Source: a virus | Lineage: Duplodnaviria > Caudoviricetes | Virus record (IMG/VR): IMGVR_UViG_3300032284_000540 | Coordinates: 1-55,448 of that record | Direction: 5' to 3' (one strand) | DNA length: 55,448 nt | Shown here: positions 23,202 to 41,867 of the stretch, piece after piece | How the letters are laid out: each line of letters starts with the position of its first letter | Position numbering within the stretch: position 1 is the first letter of the stretch | The notes under the pieces: generated by a model | What the model was told of the DNA's origin: nothing | Seen by the model: the letters and a program-made list of their open reading frames with translations, nothing else | Databases searched by the model: none | Position numbers and translations under genes: made by a program

Positions 23202-23371
23202 GTCATAACACGCTAGAGAACTTTTATAAAGTTACTTTCGCGCTAGCTCAGCACCATAAATACTCGTTAAGTGACTTAGATAATCTTATGCCGTTCGAGC
23301 TTGACATATATGTCGATATGCTTCAGAAGTTTAATATAGAACAAGAAAAACGTAACAGAAGTACGGGTTAA
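23183..23371 (+). CDS. gp51: gp51-like baseplate hub assembly catalyst; no proper start codon, probably reached by -1 frameshift from gp26
   Basis: Manual translation: FFYVALSHNTLENFYKVTFALAQHHKYSLSDLDNLMPFELDIYVDMLQKFNIEQEKRNRSTG*. Contains the gp51 FAL.QHHKYSL...MP.E.DIY motif; its stop overlaps the next ATG (TAATG). Confidence 0.85.
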   Translation, partial: FFYVALSHNTLENFYKVTFALAQHHKYSLSDLDNLMPFELDIYVDMLQKFNIEQEKRNRSTG

Positions 23372-25947
23372 TGGCCGAACCAGTTCCAGAAGTCAAAGAC
23401 GTAAAACAAGATATTAAAAAGCCCGAAGATGGCATGAAAGCCATGGCTCGCGAAGCTGGCAATGGAACTACCGGCGGCGTGTCCAAGACTATGGACACAA
23501 TTATGAAGGCAGTAAAGTCTAACTCGACATCCCCGCGTAAGTACGAAGCTAAGACTAAGCCGGCTGGTCTACCAGAAACTGCTGCTCAAGAGATCAAAGA
23601 TACTGGGGCCGAAGTCAGAAGATTGTCCGCTTCTGTCGGGATGATCAACTACAATGTCAATAATATGTTGAACGTGGTTGAAAAGAATACTGGTCTCATG
23701 AACGTTATGATGACTCAGCTCGGCTCCATGGACTATAAGATAGATTCATTAGATAAAAAAATATCAAGTTCTGGAAGTTCTGGAAGTTCTGGAAGTGGAG
23801 GCTTAATAAGTGGCATAGTAGATGGATTAATTTCTGGATTAACTACTGAAGGGTTGCTAGGCACAGCTAGTACAGCGTTAGGAGCTGCTGGTGAATTAGC
23901 TGCTGGTACATTATTACCTATTGCTATGATAGCAGTAGGAGGGTATGGTGCTCATGAACTGTCAGAACAGGCTAAAGAAGAATTTGGCCAAGATTTTAGA
24001 GAAAAGTTACAGCCGATTCATAAAAGAGCGATGAAAGAAGGACTAACAGATATCGCTCCTCAGAACGCTGAACTACAAGAATTATTAGATAGACCGGATA
24101 AAGCACAGTTTGCAAAAGAACTCTTATCAGGAGAAATAGGATCTCCTAAAGATGTACAGAGATATGGAAAAGAAAATTTAGAAAAAATTGCTAGGGGAGA
24201 AGATTTAACTGTTAAACAGATGAGAACAGGCGGGCCCCAAGAATCTGCTGCAGTAACAAAAGCAAGAACTGAGATAGATGCGGCGCGAGTCAGGCCTCCA
24301 AAACCGACATCAGACGCTAGTAAAATAACTGGTGGCGGCGTAGGAGGAGCTGTAGGAGGAACGGATGACGACGTCTCTGGTATTAAACCATCTAAGAACG
24401 TAGACGGAAACACGAAACAAAAATTTGATACTATAGCAAAACAGGCTGCGGGTTTCGGCGATTCTATGGGAGGAATTATAACAGCGGCTCAATGGGCTCT
24501 AGAATCTGGATGGGGTAATAGTACTATAGCCAACACGTTAAATAACGAATTTGGTCAGACTGCTACTGCTTCTGAACCGGGAAAAACTTTTCCTGGAAAC
24601 TCTCTTAAATTCAAAGCTTATCAGACTAGAGAAGACGGTCGTAAAGAACACGTACAGCATTGGGCTTCAAAATATGCGAACGCTAAGACTCCGGCTGAAG
24701 CTATACAGATGCTTATAAAAGCTGGTTATAATTCAGAACCTGGCTATCTAAAAAATCTAAGTTCTGTTATTGCTAGTATGGGAATAGATGTCAATTCTCC
24801 GGTAGAAAAAGGAGCTTCTCAAGCAGGAACTGCGGCGGCGACTCCTACAGCCGGCCCAGACACTGCTACTCCGGAAACAACACCGTTAAAAGCTCCTCCA
24901 GCTCCCATGGGAGCTACGTCTGGAGCTATTCCTATACCAGCTGCAGCTGCAGCAACTCAAGCAGCGGCCGGTCCGGCTACTACTGCTCCGGATCCCGGTA
25001 CGTACGGTGTATCATCGCCTCCGGCCGGAGTAGCAAATCAGGCTGCTCTTAGTTCTCTTCCTAACGTGAAGATAGCTTCTGGAGTAAACGTAGATAAGCT
25101 AGACCCAGAATTTGCTAATAAGCTAGCAGCTGCTATACAAGAGTACGGACAACCAGTCGCTATAAACTCAGGATTTAGAGACGATAAGTATCAAGCAGAA
25201 TTGTGGGTAAGAAGTCATATACTAAGAGATCCTACAGTCATAGGAGCTGCTCCGCCGAAACAAGCTCAGAAAGTTACGATAAACGGCCGTACGTATGACG
25301 TGCCCGGCGGAGGCGGTGGTTCACTGCACAGTCAAGGAAAGGCCATCGATCTAAGTCCAGCACAAGCTCAAGACATGTCTAGGAAGGGAATCTTAAGAAA
25401 ACACGGTTTAGCTGCTCCGTTTAGCTGGGATCCTGTACATGTTCAGCTGGCCGGCGCTGGTGGAGGAGGCGACGCAGGAGCTCAACCGACAGGAGCGCCT
25501 GCTGCAGGAAGTATGAATATCTCCGGAGCCGGTGGAGTAGCGCCGGGAACTAGCTCGATATCGAACTTAGCCGCTAGTCCCAGAGGCTTCATGGGAGCTC
25601 CCGGGAGCCCCGCCATGATGGCTCAGGGCCCGTTGGGTATGGGTCTACCCAATCCTATAGGAGGTCTCAGGAGTCAGCTGGGAGCCGGTCCGTTAGGGCC
25701 GTTGATGAGCATGGTAGGATCCATGGGTAACATCGGCAATCTCATAGGTGGGCTAACGAGAGCCATCGGCGGTTCTGCTCAACAGAACAGAGGATACAGA
25801 GACGCGCCGAACCCGAACTTCGTTCCAGACAACTACTCGAGAAATCAAGTACCTACTGCAATGCCTAGCAGCAACCTTCTCAGAGAGCTGTTCGATCTTA
25901 ACGTCGGAGCTGGAATGAACCCTGCCGGATACGCGTTCGGTAGATAA
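23371..25947 (+). CDS. Tape-measure/hub (gp29-position) protein with glucosaminidase-like and M15 peptidase-like domains
   Basis: AAQWALESGWG...NNEFG...GY...PGY (GH73-like) and INSGFR...SLHSQGKAIDL...DPVHVQ (M15 Zn-peptidase-like); follows gp26/gp51. Confidence 0.75.
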   Translation: MAEPVPEVKDVKQDIKKPEDGMKAMAREAGNGTTGGVSKTMDTIMKAVKSNSTSPRKYEAKTKPAGLPETAAQEIKDTGAEVRRLSASVGMINYNVNNMLNVVEKNTGLMNVMMTQLGSMDYKIDSLDKKISSSGSSGSSGSGGLISGIVDGLISGLTTEGLLGTASTALGAAGELAAGTLLPIAMIAVGGYGAHELSEQAKEEFGQDFREKLQPIHKRAMKEGLTDIAPQNAELQELLDRPDKAQFAKELLSGEIGSPKDVQRYGKENLEKIARGEDLTVKQMRTGGPQESAAVTKARTEIDAARVRPPKPTSDASKITGGGVGGAVGGTDDDVSGIKPSKNVDGNTKQKFDTIAKQAAGFGDSMGGIITAAQWALESGWGNSTIANTLNNEFGQTATASEPGKTFPGNSLKFKAYQTREDGRKEHVQHWASKYANAKTPAEAIQMLIKAGYNSEPGYLKNLSSVIASMGIDVNSPVEKGASQAGTAAATPTAGPDTATPETTPLKAPPAPMGATSGAIPIPAAAAATQAAAGPATTAPDPGTYGVSSPPAGVANQAALSSLPNVKIASGVNVDKLDPEFANKLAAAIQEYGQPVAINSGFRDDKYQAELWVRSHILRDPTVIGAAPPKQAQKVTINGRTYDVPGGGGGSLHSQGKAIDLSPAQAQDMSRKGILRKHGLAAPFSWDPVHVQLAGAGGGGDAGAQPTGAPAAGSMNISGAGGVAPGTSSISNLAASPRGFMGAPGSPAMMAQGPLGMGLPNPIGGLRSQLGAGPLGPLMSMVGSMGNIGNLIGGLTRAIGGSAQQNRGYRDAPNPNFVPDNYSRNQVPTAMPSSNLLRELFDLNVGAGMNPAGYAFGR

Positions 25948-38262: not shown

Positions 38263-38622
38263 TTAAGCCCGTCTGTGTAAAAACGTATCTTTGACAGTAT
38301 CTGGCTTAAAGCATTCTCTTACTAGTTCGATCACGATCTTGGTATCAAATGGTTTGCATGAAAATACGTCAAGGTACATCTCGTTCAACTCGTTGACGAA
38401 GTGCGCACAGATGTTACTAGTCTCGATAAGCTGAACTAGAGTAAATCCAGCTTTATCTCCGCTTCCGAAGTCTACTATCTGAGGTTCGCCGTAAGCTACC
38501 ATGTCGATATCTTTTACTAGTCGTTTAGTAAAATCGTGGACAGTCTGATGATTACGAATGGCCGCCGGATCACATCCAGCACAGTCTAAGATGAGGTGAT
38601 AACCCCAGTAGGCAGTTTTCAT
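38263..38622 (-). CDS. speD: Pyruvoyl-dependent S-adenosylmethionine decarboxylase family protein
   Basis: G.HLILDC.GC, LIETSNI..HF and YLDVFSCK.F motifs. Confidence 0.85.
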   Translation of the reverse strand: MKTAYWGYHLILDCAGCDPAAIRNHQTVHDFTKRLVKDIDMVAYGEPQIVDFGSGDKAGFTLVQLIETSNICAHFVNELNEMYLDVFSCKPFDTKIVIELVRECFKPDTVKDTFLHRRA

Positions 38623-38635
38623 GTCTTTTCCTTAA

Positions 38636-38917
38636 TTAAGCGTTGTCTAGAATCTGAGCGTATCTTACGGAGTCTATACGAAAAGACCTCCAGCCGCCCT
38701 TCTGAATATCCCACACCGCGATAGTATCTTGATTCTTAGCATGAAAATCACGCTCTTCTTTTTCCTCGTTGACGTACTGTGGAGGTAGTTTTCCGGGAAG
38801 AAGAGTGCATCGCATGACACGATCCTCGCCATTCGCTTTAGTAAAATGAATCTCTACTACGTTCTGTCTAAGGTCGTTGAGAAGAGCATCTCTTTGATAC
38901 ATATCACCGTTCATCAT
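38636..38917 (-). CDS. WYL_2/SH3-like beta-barrel protein (DUF2693-like)
   Basis: FTK.NGE.RVMRCTL...VWD....WRSFR. Confidence 0.85.
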   Translation of the reverse strand: MMNGDMYQRDALLNDLRQNVVEIHFTKANGEDRVMRCTLLPGKLPPQYVNEEKEERDFHAKNQDTIAVWDIQKGGWRSFRIDSVRYAQILDNA

Positions 38918-39195
38918 AGTTTCACCTGTTCCTGTTCCATAAGTAATTGTTTATTAGATGTAGCAGCTTCTTCTTTTAATAGTATAGTCTGCAGCTCGTT
39001 ATACCCGCCGATGTAGAACCCGTCTATCACTACCACTGGATAAGTCTTAACGGAAGGGTATCTTTCTAGCAGTATCTCTCTGGTGAAGTCTACGTTTAGC
39101 TTCTGTTCAGAGAACTTCATATTCCTGTTAGCCAGTAGCTCTTTAGCTCTGGTGCAGTACGTGCAGTCAGTCTTAGTGTATATTTCTACGTGCAT
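38914..39195 (-). CDS. Glutaredoxin
   Basis: CTYC active site, TYP and IGGY motifs. Confidence 0.92.
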   Translation of the reverse strand: MHVEIYTKTDCTYCTRAKELLANRNMKFSEQKLNVDFTREILLERYPSVKTYPVVVIDGFYIGGYNELQTILLKEEAATSNKQLLMEQEQVKL

Positions 39196-39680: not shown

Positions 39681-40349
39681 TTATTCGTTCAGTATCCTCG
39701 CTAAATCTTCTAATGTATTTATCGTCTCGTCACGATCACACAACCTGACGAATTCATTTTTATCGGTCGACCACTCGTTCCCTGTCCACCACTCGAACCC
39801 GTCGTACTTGCTCTTATATATGGCGCTCGGCCCGTATCCGGCGCCGATGTATAGATGATCTAAACTCTTCGACCTAGCATGATCGATCTCGTAATGCAAA
39901 AGCTTGGCTCCAATAGACAGCTTAGGCTTATGATAGTTCCATGCCGAAAAAGTCGACTCTATTCCACCGTCATAGTTAGTCATCTTAGTAAAAGCTACGG
40001 GTGTGCCGGTGTCTTCTACTACGATCCATTCTGCCCTATTCAAGTCTACTTTAAAGTCATAGTGCTTGCTGAACTTCTTTATACTCATATACTGCTCGAA
40101 TATGACGTCTAGCTTCTTGTCGTACTCGCCCAACGAAAAAGTAACTCCCGGTATCTTAGGTAGTTTCTTACTAGCTAAGCTCAGGTCTATACGCGTGGAA
40201 CGTGAATGATACCATTTTCCGTCGTGTATAAGCCAACCCGCTTCTAAAGCTTTCTTTTCGTCTAGGTTTTTTGTATCCAACTTCAGCTTAACTATCTCTA
40301 AGTCATACTTTTCATGTGAACCGTAGATCGTTAGGATGTCTTTCTTCAT
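39681..40349 (-). CDS. Aminoacyl-tRNA:protein transferase-like GNAT (ATE/Bpt C-terminal domain-like)
   Basis: L.AGW, STRIDL and LSIG....EI..AR...L.HLYIG.GY.....YK motifs; TATAAATA at 40386-40393. Confidence 0.6.
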   Translation of the reverse strand: MKKDILTIYGSHEKYDLEIVKLKLDTKNLDEKKALEAGWLIHDGKWYHSRSTRIDLSLASKKLPKIPGVTFSLGEYDKKLDVIFEQYMSIKKFSKHYDFKVDLNRAEWIVVEDTGTPVAFTKMTNYDGGIESTFSAWNYHKPKLSIGAKLLHYEIDHARSKSLDHLYIGAGYGPSAIYKSKYDGFEWWTGNEWSTDKNEFVRLCDRDETINTLEDLARILNE

Positions 40350-40384
40350 CTACTCTTTCTGAAATTAGAACCGCTGTGATTGGT

Positions 40385-40867
40385 TTATTTATACTTATAG
40401 TAGAGAAGACTCTTGTACCTATCGGCAGCATAAGTGGCAGCGAAAGCATTAGGTTTGACCATAGGAACGACGTTACACGTGGCTTTGATGTATCCGATGG
40501 CCTGTTGCATGACACAGAAAGATCCTTGTTTTTCGTCAGAATTAATATCGAGATGTATCTCGAAGTGTCTATCTCCTATAGCTTCGGCTAGCTGGAGATA
40601 CAGGCCAGAGATCTTATAGACTTCGTTCATTAGTCTGAATCTGGGTTTATCTTTTTGCTGATCGAAGTCTTTTTCGGTGCTAATGTCGCCGAAAAGCTTA
40701 GCGCCCTTACACCCATCATAGTGGACGACGACGGCTAGTGTATAATCTGCATACCATACTTCATTTTTTACATATCTCTCTGAATCAGACCCGAGATATA
40801 TCTTGGTACTACTAGAAGTATTAGATATGAAATGGCTGACTTCGTCGATGTTTATATTTCTTTGCAT
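40385..40867 (-). CDS. RNase H-like YkuK (DUF458) family protein
   Basis: IYLGSDS, RLMNEV, EIHLDIN and KP.AFAATYAAD motifs. Confidence 0.85.
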   Translation of the reverse strand: MQRNINIDEVSHFISNTSSSTKIYLGSDSERYVKNEVWYADYTLAVVVHYDGCKGAKLFGDISTEKDFDQQKDKPRFRLMNEVYKISGLYLQLAEAIGDRHFEIHLDINSDEKQGSFCVMQQAIGYIKATCNVVPMVKPNAFAATYAADRYKSLLYYKYK

Positions 40868-40881
40868 GATTTATATTAGAG

Positions 40882-40956
40882 TGGAGCGGAGAGAGGGAAT
40901 CGAACCCTCGACCAACAGTTTGGAAAACTGTGACTCTACCACTGAGTTACCCCCGC
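40882..40956 (-). tRNA. tRNA-Gly (anticodon TCC)
   Basis: Cloverleaf GCGGGGG TA ACTC AGTGGTA GAGT C ACAGT TTTCCAA ACTGT TGGTC GAGGG TTCGATT CCCTC TCTCCGC T CCA. U73 discriminator, encoded CCA, and CATAAATA upstream (40983-40990). Confidence 0.95.
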
Positions 40957-40987: not shown

Positions 40988-41488
40988 ATGGATATGACTA
41001 GTGCTATAAGATGGTTGGCAATGCAGCGAGGCTGCATGTGTGAGATGTGTGGTCGTGGCGAATGGCTTAAGATCGTGACGTCTACTGGCAAGATACCAGA
41101 TTATTTAATATTATACCACAAAGACGGAGACGTTGTAAACAATAATTTGGACAACGTATCATTAAGATGCGACACGTGTTCTAAACTAAGAGACGCCAAG
41201 AAAGTAGCGTTCTTGACACCGGCAAAAGGAACGAAGAACGCCAATCATGCACACGTAGGAAAGTTATACATACACAAGGGCGCGCAGAACAAGTTTGTGT
41301 TTCCTAGAGACCTGGAAAGATACTTGGCCGAAGGATGGGAGAGAGGTAGGATCACTCATACCAGACCCCCGCCACACACTGGAAAGATCAGAATAACCGA
41401 CGGAGTAAGAAATAGAATATGGGAAAAAGACGTGCCATTACCAGAAGGATGGTGGAGAGGTCAGGTCAAGAAAGATGACTCTTTCTGA
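40988..41488 (+). CDS. Free-standing HNH endonuclease-like protein (possibly degenerate)
   Basis: CEMC...YHKDGDVVNNNLDNV...CDTC plus two EGW..G repeats; on the opposite strand to its neighbours. Confidence 0.75.
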   Translation: MDMTSAIRWLAMQRGCMCEMCGRGEWLKIVTSTGKIPDYLILYHKDGDVVNNNLDNVSLRCDTCSKLRDAKKVAFLTPAKGTKNANHAHVGKLYIHKGAQNKFVFPRDLERYLAEGWERGRITHTRPPPHTGKIRITDGVRNRIWEKDVPLPEGWWRGQVKKDDSF

Positions 41489-41867
41489 TCTTGCAGAATA
41501 TCCAAGAGTTATAGTACTCGTCAGACTCTAACACCCTAAGCTCAAACTGTAACCTAGCTTCGTGATAAGAAGCATCTCCCTTAGTCTTACAGAGAACTAG
41601 TATCTCTCTACTAAAGTTTTCTTTTCCTAGCTTCTCTATGTCTGCTTTAAGCTCTGCGCTAGAGCCGTAGTACTTCTGCCAGTCAGACTCGAGCTTCACA
41701 CGCTTCGCACGCTTCTTTCCCCTGATCTTCTTTTTTCTAGAAGACCAGAACCATTTCTTTCCGATATATTTTCTGTCAGTAAGTTTGTTCGTTATGCGGT
41801 ATACAAAACCGAAATTGTCACCGATCATAGACGAGTCAAAATCTTTAATTCCGTAGGTCCATACCAT
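41466..41867 (-). CDS. GIY-YIG endonuclease (endonuclease II/DenA-like)
   Basis: GFVY.ITN....KYIGKK, W..YYGSS, F.REIL and YYN motifs; follows nrdB; TATAAATA at 41873-41880. Confidence 0.85.
   Translation of the reverse strand: MVWTYGIKDFDSSMIGDNFGFVYRITNKLTDRKYIGKKWFWSSRKKKIRGKKRAKRVKLESDWQKYYGSSAELKADIEKLGKENFSREILVLCKTKGDASYHEARLQFELRVLESDEYYNSWIFCKIRKSHLS

Follow-up and report, generated by a model that had tools for sequence, protein, structure and literature searches.

Aminoacyl-tRNA-protein transferases, which transfer an amino acid from charged tRNA to the ends of proteins, are known from cells, in which ATE1, Bpt and Aat set the half-lives of proteins. The DNA considered here, IMG/VR record IMGVR_UViG_3300032284_000540 (the whole stretch of 55,448 bases that was analysed is referred to as the window), is a fragment with an estimated completeness of about 33% (CheckV), derived from an uncultured, aquatic, T4-like myovirus. 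It contains a gene whose product is a true but remodelled homologue of ATE1 and Bpt (the Asp/Glu leucyl-tRNA-protein transferase), and not an ordinary acetyl-coenzyme A (CoA) GNAT. The remainder of the record encodes baseplate wedge and hub proteins, a gp32-type single-stranded DNA-binding protein, a helicase loader, NrdAB, thymidylate synthase, PhoH, SpeD and a primase. For its gp6-like baseplate protein, cultured phages offer nothing closer than about 35% identity (Stenotrophomonas DLP_6, Sinorhizobium phiM12/phiN3, Caulobacter Cr30 and Pelagibacter HTVC008M); near-identical DNA is contained in aquatic metagenome runs from at least two studies. The features of the locus are collected in Table 1.

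Table 1. Features at and around the transferase gene (positions in the window)
Feature	Position	Strand	Basis or remark
ATE/Bpt-like aminoacyl-tRNA transferase homologue gene, 222 residues	39681..40349	-	open reading frame; AlphaFold (AF2) model; fold matches; family profile; hhalign
N-terminal domain, residues 1-66, counterpart of ATE_N without Cys4 metal site	40152..40349	-	hhalign equivalences; residue frequencies; VIA alignment
GNAT-type catalytic domain, residues 67-222 and stop codon	39681..40151	-	alignments to KlAte1 and Bpt
E154 codon	39888-39890	-	codon position checked
Y178 codon	39816-39818	-	codon position checked
K179 codon	39813-39815	-	codon position checked
TATAAATA box, T4-type late-promoter-like	40386-40393	-	36 nucleotides upstream of transferase ATG
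Downstream partner gene DN168, 168 residues	39173..39679	-	begins 1 nucleotide past transferase stop
RNase H-like protein, 160 residues, PF04308, phrog_11311	40385..40867	-	Pfam E 7e-15; between tRNA and transferase gene
tRNA-Gly(UCC), canonical, CCA encoded	40882..40956	-	ARAGORN, Rfam; CCA read off sequence
SpeD-type pyruvoyl decarboxylase, 119 residues	38263-38622	-	three genes downstream of transferase

The open reading frame of the transferase homologue reads ALEAGWLIHDGKWYHSRSTRIDL and LSIGAKLLHYEIDHARSKSLDHLYIGAGYGPSAIYK, and the motifs quoted for it in a preliminary description of this DNA, which had called the product ATE/Bpt-like, are thus present in it. The N-terminal domain holds G38-W39-L40 where ATE1 and Bpt have GFRRSG, together with two arginines that are near-invariant in the family: R50 (97/106 sequences) and R53 (99/106). 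The catalytic domain holds S132, W137, E154, Y167, Y178 and K179, and the motif GFEWWTG..W.

Homology, fold, residue conservation, gene linkage and the promoter-like box were all computed in the present work. The AF2 model of the protein is of high predicted quality (predicted local distance difference score, pLDDT, 93.1; predicted template-modelling score, pTM, 0.88). Foldseek ranked yeast ATE1 first (7tif; E 6.9e-6, 248 columns), followed by KlAte1, human ATE1, aminoacyl-phosphatidylglycerol synthases, VipF and FemX. In an independent structural comparison with VIA, the first rank was taken by human ATE1 (8tzv; Z 14.2, 199 residues aligned within residues 1-210 of the model), and KlAte1 (7wfx; Z 12.7) aligned 213 residues over residues 1-222. 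MprF (Z 13.6), FemX (Z 13.3) and the tRNA-dependent peptide synthase Sbb17 (9wqx; Z 11.8) were also matched, as were ordinary acetyl-CoA GNATs (Z 10-12), the latter over about 119-137 residues and in the C-terminal lobe only. Among the fold matches, ATE1 alone gave a full-length structural alignment. An acetyl-CoA GNAT as the best match was the outcome that the preliminary description had set against its own identification; both searches returned ATE1 instead.

By sequence, the relationship becomes visible at the level of the family. There are 32 close homologues, of which six have a precomputed ATE_C hit, one is automatically named arginyl-tRNA--protein-N-Asp/Glu arginylyltransferase, and 24 match ATE_C at E ≤ 0.1; among 106 representatives, ATE_C is matched by 61 (E ≤ 0.01; best 1e-12). 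A profile of the 32 close sequences places ATE1 at the top of the PDB, but with an E value of 0.15 only, so that the broader profile was needed: the profile of all 106 sequences matches the ATE1 structures with E 1.3e-8 (KlAte1) and E 1.7e-8 (yeast ATE1). Of 26 genomes sampled, 12 had ATE_C; comparison of the phage family with nine genuine Bpt of bacterial origin gave a probability of 98.3 and E 1.2e-14 over 178 columns (hhalign), with residues 28-196 of the window protein corresponding to Bpt 38-236. The window protein itself is matched by the NCBIfam arginyltransferase model PRK01305 (E 1.3e-4; 21.3 bits, where the cut-off is 267). The ATE/Bpt-like identity that had been proposed is therefore borne out.

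The residues required for catalysis in ATE1 are those best retained. Residue frequencies were taken from the 106-sequence family alignment; as to numbering, the 7wfx chain runs four ahead of native KlAte1, GFRRSG corresponds to residues 77-82 of ScATE1, and KlAte1 numbers are those of ScATE1 plus one. In KlAte1, the mutants K304A (K304 being the analogue of FemX K305) and Y303F are inactive; E277 binds the side chain of Arg, with E277K inactive, E277A very low and E277D as wild type; W260 is involved in tRNA binding, W260A increasing the Km (Michaelis constant) 18-fold; and Y173F increases the Km about 6-fold (PMC9351520). The equivalent of K304 is K179, present in 103/106 sequences; that of Y303 is Y178 (88/106, with W in 12 more); that of E277 is E154 (85/106 in the broad alignment and 32/32 close homologues); and those of W260 and Y173 are W137 (64/106) and Y87 (80/106). 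Because homology to ATE1 and Bpt is combined with conservation of the catalytic residues, the window protein is likely to be an aminoacyl-tRNA transferase.

The donor pocket of the window protein comprises S132/L150/E154/L166; the corresponding residues are S/S/E/Y in Ate1 and A/A/Q/L in the Bpt of V. vulnificus, in which Gln189 occupies the position of E277 (PMC9351520). The conserved E154 is suggestive of a basic donor, most simply arginine. This is suggestive only: three of the nine bacterial Bpt-like sequences likewise have Glu at the position of E154, so that Glu alone is insufficient to fix the donor.

Around this core, much of what characterizes ATE1 and Bpt is missing or degraded, and some of these losses weigh against an active aminoacyl-tRNA transferase, as does the behaviour of the window protein in single-sequence searches: taken alone, it reaches none of the cut-offs of the curated families (Pfam ATE_C, 25 bits; NCBIfam PRK01305, 170-358 bits), and its sole Pfam match is Acetyltransf_6 (E 0.016). 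ATE_C was not matched at E ≤ 1 in the Pfam search or at E ≤ 0.01 in a six-frame search, and the protein matches no PHROG. The Cys4 metal site is absent: there is one Cys in total (C204) and none in residues 1-203, and thus none in the N-terminal domain, the preliminary description having been correct that the Cys/His cluster of the cellular enzymes is not evident. A first stretch of 75 residues without Cys is found in 43/106 members of the phage family, whereas all nine Bpt have at least four Cys in their first 110 residues. Opposite Bpt C61, C64 and C67 stand W46, S49 and a gap (in a region of low alignment confidence), and C17 lies outside the aligned range (hhalign). In yeast ATE1, the metal site (C20, C23, C94, C95) stabilises the substrate cleft and aids tRNA binding (PMC10115844); this zinc site is missing here.

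As regards the N-terminal domain as a whole, none of 43 N-terminal pieces (the N-terminal 72 residues) matches Pfam ATE_N at E ≤ 10, and their PDB matches are chance matches only; the equivalence of this region to ATE_N rests on hhalign and on the full-length structural alignments (VIA, model residues 1-210 and 1-222). In KlAte1, R80 recognises the acidic N-terminal residue of the substrate, and R80E is inactive; the basic helix α3 binds the acceptor stem of the tRNA, and a penta-Glu mutant of it is inactive; and H178 contacts C75/A76 of the tRNA (all from PMC9351520). R80, the first R of GFRRSG, aligns with L40 with moderate alignment confidence (hhalign), and the commonest states of position 40 in the 106 rows are L (60), I (12), A (7), gaps (6), C (4) and Y (4). 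No basic residue is conserved at positions 40-42 of the alignment, and Y87 of KlAte1 falls in an alignment gap. R53, on the other hand, is paired with high confidence with the Arg that is invariant in the “VRI” motif of Bpt and the “TIR” motif of ATE1. The basic tRNA-stem helix is reduced in the AF2 model to a coil of 24 residues (segment 54-77, with 3 K/R and 3 D/E); longer relatives of about 260 residues retain motifs of the “SENRR..KK” type, the helix being truncated in the clade of the window protein. The position of H178 is K92 here, and G or N in most relatives; K91, which immediately precedes it, is basic in 88/106.

The degraded tRNA-binding helix, the Acetyltransf_6 match and the presence of VipF and other acetyl-CoA GNATs among the fold matches speak for an acyl-CoA-dependent or other non-tRNA GNAT acyltransferase that resembles the tRNA-dependent enzymes in fold only. 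However, acetyl-CoA GNATs cover only the C-terminal lobe and with lower Z, the Lys/Tyr pair typical of aminoacyl-tRNA transferases is near-invariant, and the motif [QR]xxGx[GA], which follows strand β4 in acetyl-CoA GNATs and binds the pyrophosphate of CoA, occurs at the equivalent place in just 1 of 105 family members (the window protein reads KLSIGAK), all of which renders such an enzyme very improbable. Loss of the metal site, the Arg-Arg dyad, the basic helix and the equivalent of H178 could also mean that the protein is a non-catalytic derivative, e.g., one that binds charged tRNA or an N-degron component, or acts as a decoy for either. The equivalents of the KlAte1 catalytic residues (K179, Y178, E154) are nevertheless the best conserved in the family, which is unexpected for a mere binder, and we give this explanation hardly any credence.

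The preliminary description had suggested that, in the manner of Bpt, the enzyme adds a destabilising residue to the Asp/Glu N-termini of host or phage proteins, which would then be degraded by ClpS/ClpAP. The homology to Bpt and ATE1 is real, R53 is shared with them and could, with R50, make up a new basic pocket, and the automatic annotation of one homologue as an N-Asp/Glu arginylyltransferase agrees. But the Arg that is essential in KlAte1 is replaced by L40 with no conserved basic residue in its place, Y87 of KlAte1 is aligned with a gap, and no ClpS, Aat or Clp gene is present in the window, although the record represents about 33% of a genome. Because the Cys4 site, the Arg for the acidic end and the basic tRNA helix are missing or degraded, the model of an acidic N-degron is not supported and appears improbable. 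It had been proposed in addition that cleavage after Glu in head proteins provides acidic N-termini. This does not follow: a cut after Glu, which is the specificity of the T4 prohead protease, exposes the residue that comes after the Glu.

The family is found almost only in viruses. Clustering at 50% identity leaves 192 representatives (E ≤ 1e-3) among 1.84 billion proteins, and there are 326 confirmed loci in IMG/VR. In 185,579 prokaryote species, with one genome each, there were two full-length relatives and one partial relative, all on short contigs of metagenome-assembled genomes. Among 50,697 GenBank phage records, no tblastn match was found for the window protein, P0121, P0019 or the partner protein, and no megablast match for the 10 kb around the transferase gene. 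The family has no PHROG, and a literature search found nothing on phage-encoded ATE/Bpt enzymes. Six rows from Amycolatopsis were rejected as weak partial matches; the one inspected (L084) has a chance FGFEWWTG motif in an unrelated open reading frame.

The gene neighbourhood was compared in 80 related loci (designated by L numbers), of which 78 have room downstream of the transferase gene. A homologue of DN168 lies directly downstream of the transferase in 63 of these 78 (63/80 overall). Reciprocally, of 73 partner loci in which the upstream sequence extends to 700 nucleotides or more, 66 have the transferase just upstream, many of these contigs being shared with the first set. The flanks of the pair vary: RNase H-like...glutaredoxin, NrdB...SegE, tRNA-Ser..., and tRNA-Ala...tRNA-Leu. 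The case for a partnership is lessened by shared ancestry and T4-type synteny, which inflate the linkage counts, and by the 15/78 transferase loci without partner and the 7/73 partner loci without transferase; the latter include L100, L102 and L103, near relatives of the window phage without an adjacent transferase, whose partner proteins (62-63% identical) are the closest to that of the window. In L102 (2014-2995), the order is NrdB, SegE, HNH, RNase H-like, partner (63% identical), glutaredoxin, WYL2, SpeD, with the transferase missing. Since the gene order is otherwise kept, the transferase is a presence/absence polymorphism at this site. L102 also carries an additional cupin gene (876-1310).

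DN168 is a basic protein (isoelectric point 9.6), with 13 K/R within its first 45 residues, and has the motif H80-E81-x-x-E84-K85...Y95...H99...E106 (HExxEK...H...E). P45, Y50, D60, H80, E81, E84, Y95, H99, E106 and Y120 are invariant in 121/121 sequences. It belongs to no PHROG family, none of the 120 homologues listed has a Pfam match, and its profile finds nothing in the PDB. The model (pLDDT 83.8) has no convincing fold match: the best is selecase, a minigluzincin (Foldseek E 0.15; VIA Z 4.9, 92 aligned), followed by IrrE/PprI and Wss1, and globin-like helical folds match at a Z similar to that of selecase. Look-alikes named in the ESM Atlas are IrrE/M78 (0.80), SprT (0.78) and WLM (TM 0.42). 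DN168 is possibly a zincin-like metal hydrolase in which HExxE replaces HExxH; because its fold matches are weak, this is a lead and not a finding. That the basic N-terminus of DN168 might supply the tRNA helix lost from the transferase is only an idea.

Several variations on this neighbourhood were observed. In 20/80 loci (L005-L008, L010-L014, L016-L021, L033, L049, L053, L066), the partner carries a fused nucleotidyltransferase domain of the viral Pol-beta type, about 240 residues long (phrog_36119, with weak NTP_transf_2 matches; e.g., L020:4295-5542), which also exists as stand-alone phage proteins and was not found in the window. Among distant relatives of the transferase, the downstream gene may encode the gamma-glutamyl cyclotransferase GGACT (L065:3384-3848, L068:4682-5152, with L071 in the same group) or a DUF1415/DUF6875-like protein (L074:4913-5482, in L074-L077); the open reading frame downstream in L068 was rejected as a homologue of the partner (hhalign probability 0.4), being the GGACT enzyme. 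The neighbours in this set of distant relatives, which includes L073 (4629-6611) and L069 (5035-6294), also comprise a B12-binding radical-SAM enzyme directly downstream and a T4 Rnl1-type RNA ligase nearby. In L048 (1381-3717), a SNF2/DEAD-type helicase gene with an intein (Intein_splicing, Hint_2) lies just upstream of the transferase. In the window, the partner is followed by a block of glutaredoxin, WYL_2 Sm-like and SpeD genes (38263-39195, minus strand), also present in roughly two dozen of the 80 loci. Fused or longer forms of the transferase were not found, which is weak evidence. Elsewhere in the window, an 858-residue protein with glucosaminidase and VanY/M15 peptidase domains (23371-25947, plus strand) is probably a virion-associated cell-wall hydrolase.

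A bolder reading is a viral module that cuts and tags: DN168, as a metalloprotease, would cleave a specific host or phage protein, and to the N-terminus created by the cut, which would not be acidic, the transferase would add Arg from Arg-tRNA. Since bacteria treat N-terminal Arg as secondary destabilising, a fragment tagged in this way would be passed by the host Aat to ClpS/ClpAP. We consider such an N-degron module to be distinctly improbable. Rather less remote, though still unlikely, is the same chemistry directed at a small-molecule or non-protein amine, candidates being polyamines, agmatine-type amines, cell-wall precursors, lipids and modified amino acids; the enzyme would then resemble FemX, MprF or the tRNA-dependent peptide synthases of natural-product pathways. 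MprF, FemX and Sbb17 stand near ATE1 in the VIA ranking, and the residues by which ATE1 and Bpt recognise protein ends are lost. The order transferase-partner-glutaredoxin-WYL2-SpeD, with its SpeD-type decarboxylase, recurs in many loci, and the genes downstream of distant relatives include GGACT and the DUF1415-like protein (L065, L068; L074). A lead to the argolaphos cluster was set aside; that cluster encodes GNAT-type aminoacyl-tRNA ligases (PMC8976061). Against a small-molecule acceptor are the coverage of the N-terminal domain by ATE1 matches only, the fact that the nearest relatives in sequence (Bpt and ATE1) modify proteins, the absence of SpeD within 4 kb in most loci (e.g., those of the NrdB-transferase-partner-SegE type), and the lack of any evident biosynthetic cluster around the transferase gene.

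The tRNA at the locus was the only one that ARAGORN found in the window (Rfam 65.5 bits, full length), and it lies 533 nucleotides upstream of the transferase ATG with the RNase H-like open reading frame between, in agreement with the sole tRNA about 530 nucleotides and one gene away that had been reported earlier. Among 56 distinct related loci, a tRNA was present within the fetched flanks in 26, of which 17 had one within 2 kb upstream, and none was present in 30. The nearest upstream tRNAs were Met (10), Arg (4), Gly (3), Thr (3), Ser (2), Leu (2) and Ala (1). The transferase gene thus tends to sit near the tRNA region of the phage, with no single isotype linked to it. Because the neighbouring tRNAs vary over seven amino-acid types, we judge the linkage to tRNA-Gly to be incidental, as the preliminary description had allowed; tRNA-Gly as a dedicated donor was rejected, the tRNA being canonical and the isotype varying among loci.

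The RNase H-like gene (PF04308) occurs in 21/80 related loci, as a rule with tRNA genes on its flanks, and probably does not belong to the transferase module. In L001, L016-L020, L028, L050 and others it is embedded among tRNA genes (e.g., tRNA-Leu - gene - tRNA-Met, or tRNA-Gly - gene), which suggests a role linked to tRNA or RNA processing. Two further observations concern tRNA genes. In L070, ARAGORN reports a tRNA with the anticodon CUA (labelled Pyl) about 1960 nucleotides downstream of the transferase start on the minus strand, possibly an amber suppressor, and this phage contig also bears an array of at least nine tRNAs. In the window, two homing-endonuclease-like genes (40988-41488, plus strand; 41466-41867, minus strand) separate nrdB from the tRNA, an HNH-like one (weak; E 0.0014) and a GIY-YIG one of SegE type (E 4.5e-41). 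They are convergent, with a 23-nucleotide overlap of their 3′ ends, and the SegE-type gene has a TATAAATA box just 5 nucleotides ahead of its ATG.

The box upstream of the transferase overlaps the final codons (Tyr-Lys-stop) of the preceding open reading frame. We take TATAAATA to be the consensus of T4 late promoters, and for this reason late expression is plausible in this phage. The window has seven such boxes, compared with 3.05 expected, and two of 100 shuffles reach seven; six of the seven are on the minus strand, and five of those six sit 26-36 nucleotides upstream of the start of a minus-strand open reading frame (rough binomial P of about 5e-10 for this placement), one of them a baseplate/tail-tube cap gene. 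The late promoter that had been claimed is thus plausible, and, to judge from the sequence, the transferase is probably expressed late in this phage. As a feature of the family, a late promoter was rejected: of the 53 distinct regions upstream of relatives, just 7 contain ATAAATA within 80 nucleotides, as against 44 of 1600 random windows, and in most relatives the gene directly follows another open reading frame.

Taken together, we favour the reading, with a probability of roughly 0.42, that the gene encodes an active, compact and virus-restricted transferase of the ATE1/Bpt lineage, with an ATE1-like core, probably an arginine donor and a rebuilt acceptor site, and that it acts with DN168. 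Its activity, donor, acceptor, partnership and timing are what we infer from the computed features. If the mechanism follows that of KlAte1 and FemX, a charged tRNA of the host or the phage would insert its 3′ end into the GNAT cleft, where Y178 would position the tRNA end and K179 would stabilise the tetrahedral intermediate. E154 would hold the donor, most likely arginine, by its basic side chain, and this amino acid would then be joined to a primary amine of the acceptor. Because Cys4 is lacking, Leu/Ile replaces the Arg-Arg dyad, and R50 and R53 appear, we take this acceptor to be an amino group of a peptide or protein other than the classical acidic N-terminus. The enzyme would probably work together with the co-conserved HExxEK...H...E protein. 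Of the preliminary description, the homology and the incidental tRNA hold up and the late promoter is plausible; its Asp/Glu N-terminal acceptor is not supported, and its Glu-cleavage idea does not follow.

What has come to light is a large family without a cultured representative, a PHROG or a curated family assignment. The metal cluster, to which a stabilising or regulatory role in ATE1 has been ascribed, is lacking while the catalytic core is retained, and the family therefore offers a natural minimal scaffold for studies of tRNA-dependent peptide bond formation, a test of the purpose of the Cys cluster, and a possible new phage route for diverting charged tRNA into the modification of proteins or metabolites. 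If the donor is arginine, this would be an arginyltransferase of a bacterial virus.

Of the known systems, Aat (the Leu/Phe-tRNA-protein transferase) shares with the phage protein the general class of reaction but is not among the fold or sequence matches listed; under the bacterial N-degron rules, it would be the downstream host enzyme if the phage enzyme makes N-terminal Arg. FemX and MprF (the aminoacyl-phosphatidylglycerol synthase) have the GNAT-type fold (Z 13.3-13.6) and a similar logic of the catalytic Lys (FemX K305). They differ in that their matches span 147-172 residues and omit the first 30 or so; by sequence, LPG_synthase_C is matched by 1/106, and FemAB is not listed (Pfam). ATE1 (KlAte1 7WFX, ScATE1 7TIF/8E3S, human 8TZV) is the best and the sole full-length structural match, and the equivalents of its K304, Y303, E277, W260 and Y173 are conserved here; however, ATE1 has about 500 residues, with a variable C-terminal domain and long insertions, and has a CX2C...CC zinc/Fe-S site and an R80 pocket for the acidic end, both absent from the phage protein, in which H178 is also replaced. 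Bpt (ATE_N+ATE_C), with about 240 residues as against 222, has the same two-lobe layout, and the two share the G-aromatic pair (G38-W39), R53=R71, Y87=Y113, Y167=Y203, G169=G205, Y178-K179=Y216-K217, E186=E224 and W193=W231. Bpt, in turn, has the Cys4 site, GFRRSG and a basic “RSQRR” helix, whereas the phage protein has none of these, GWL(I/P) in place of the second and a truncated helix in place of the third; the donor pocket reads S/L/E/L here and A/A/Q/L in the V. vulnificus enzyme (PMC9351520); and the phage-type family is almost only viral.

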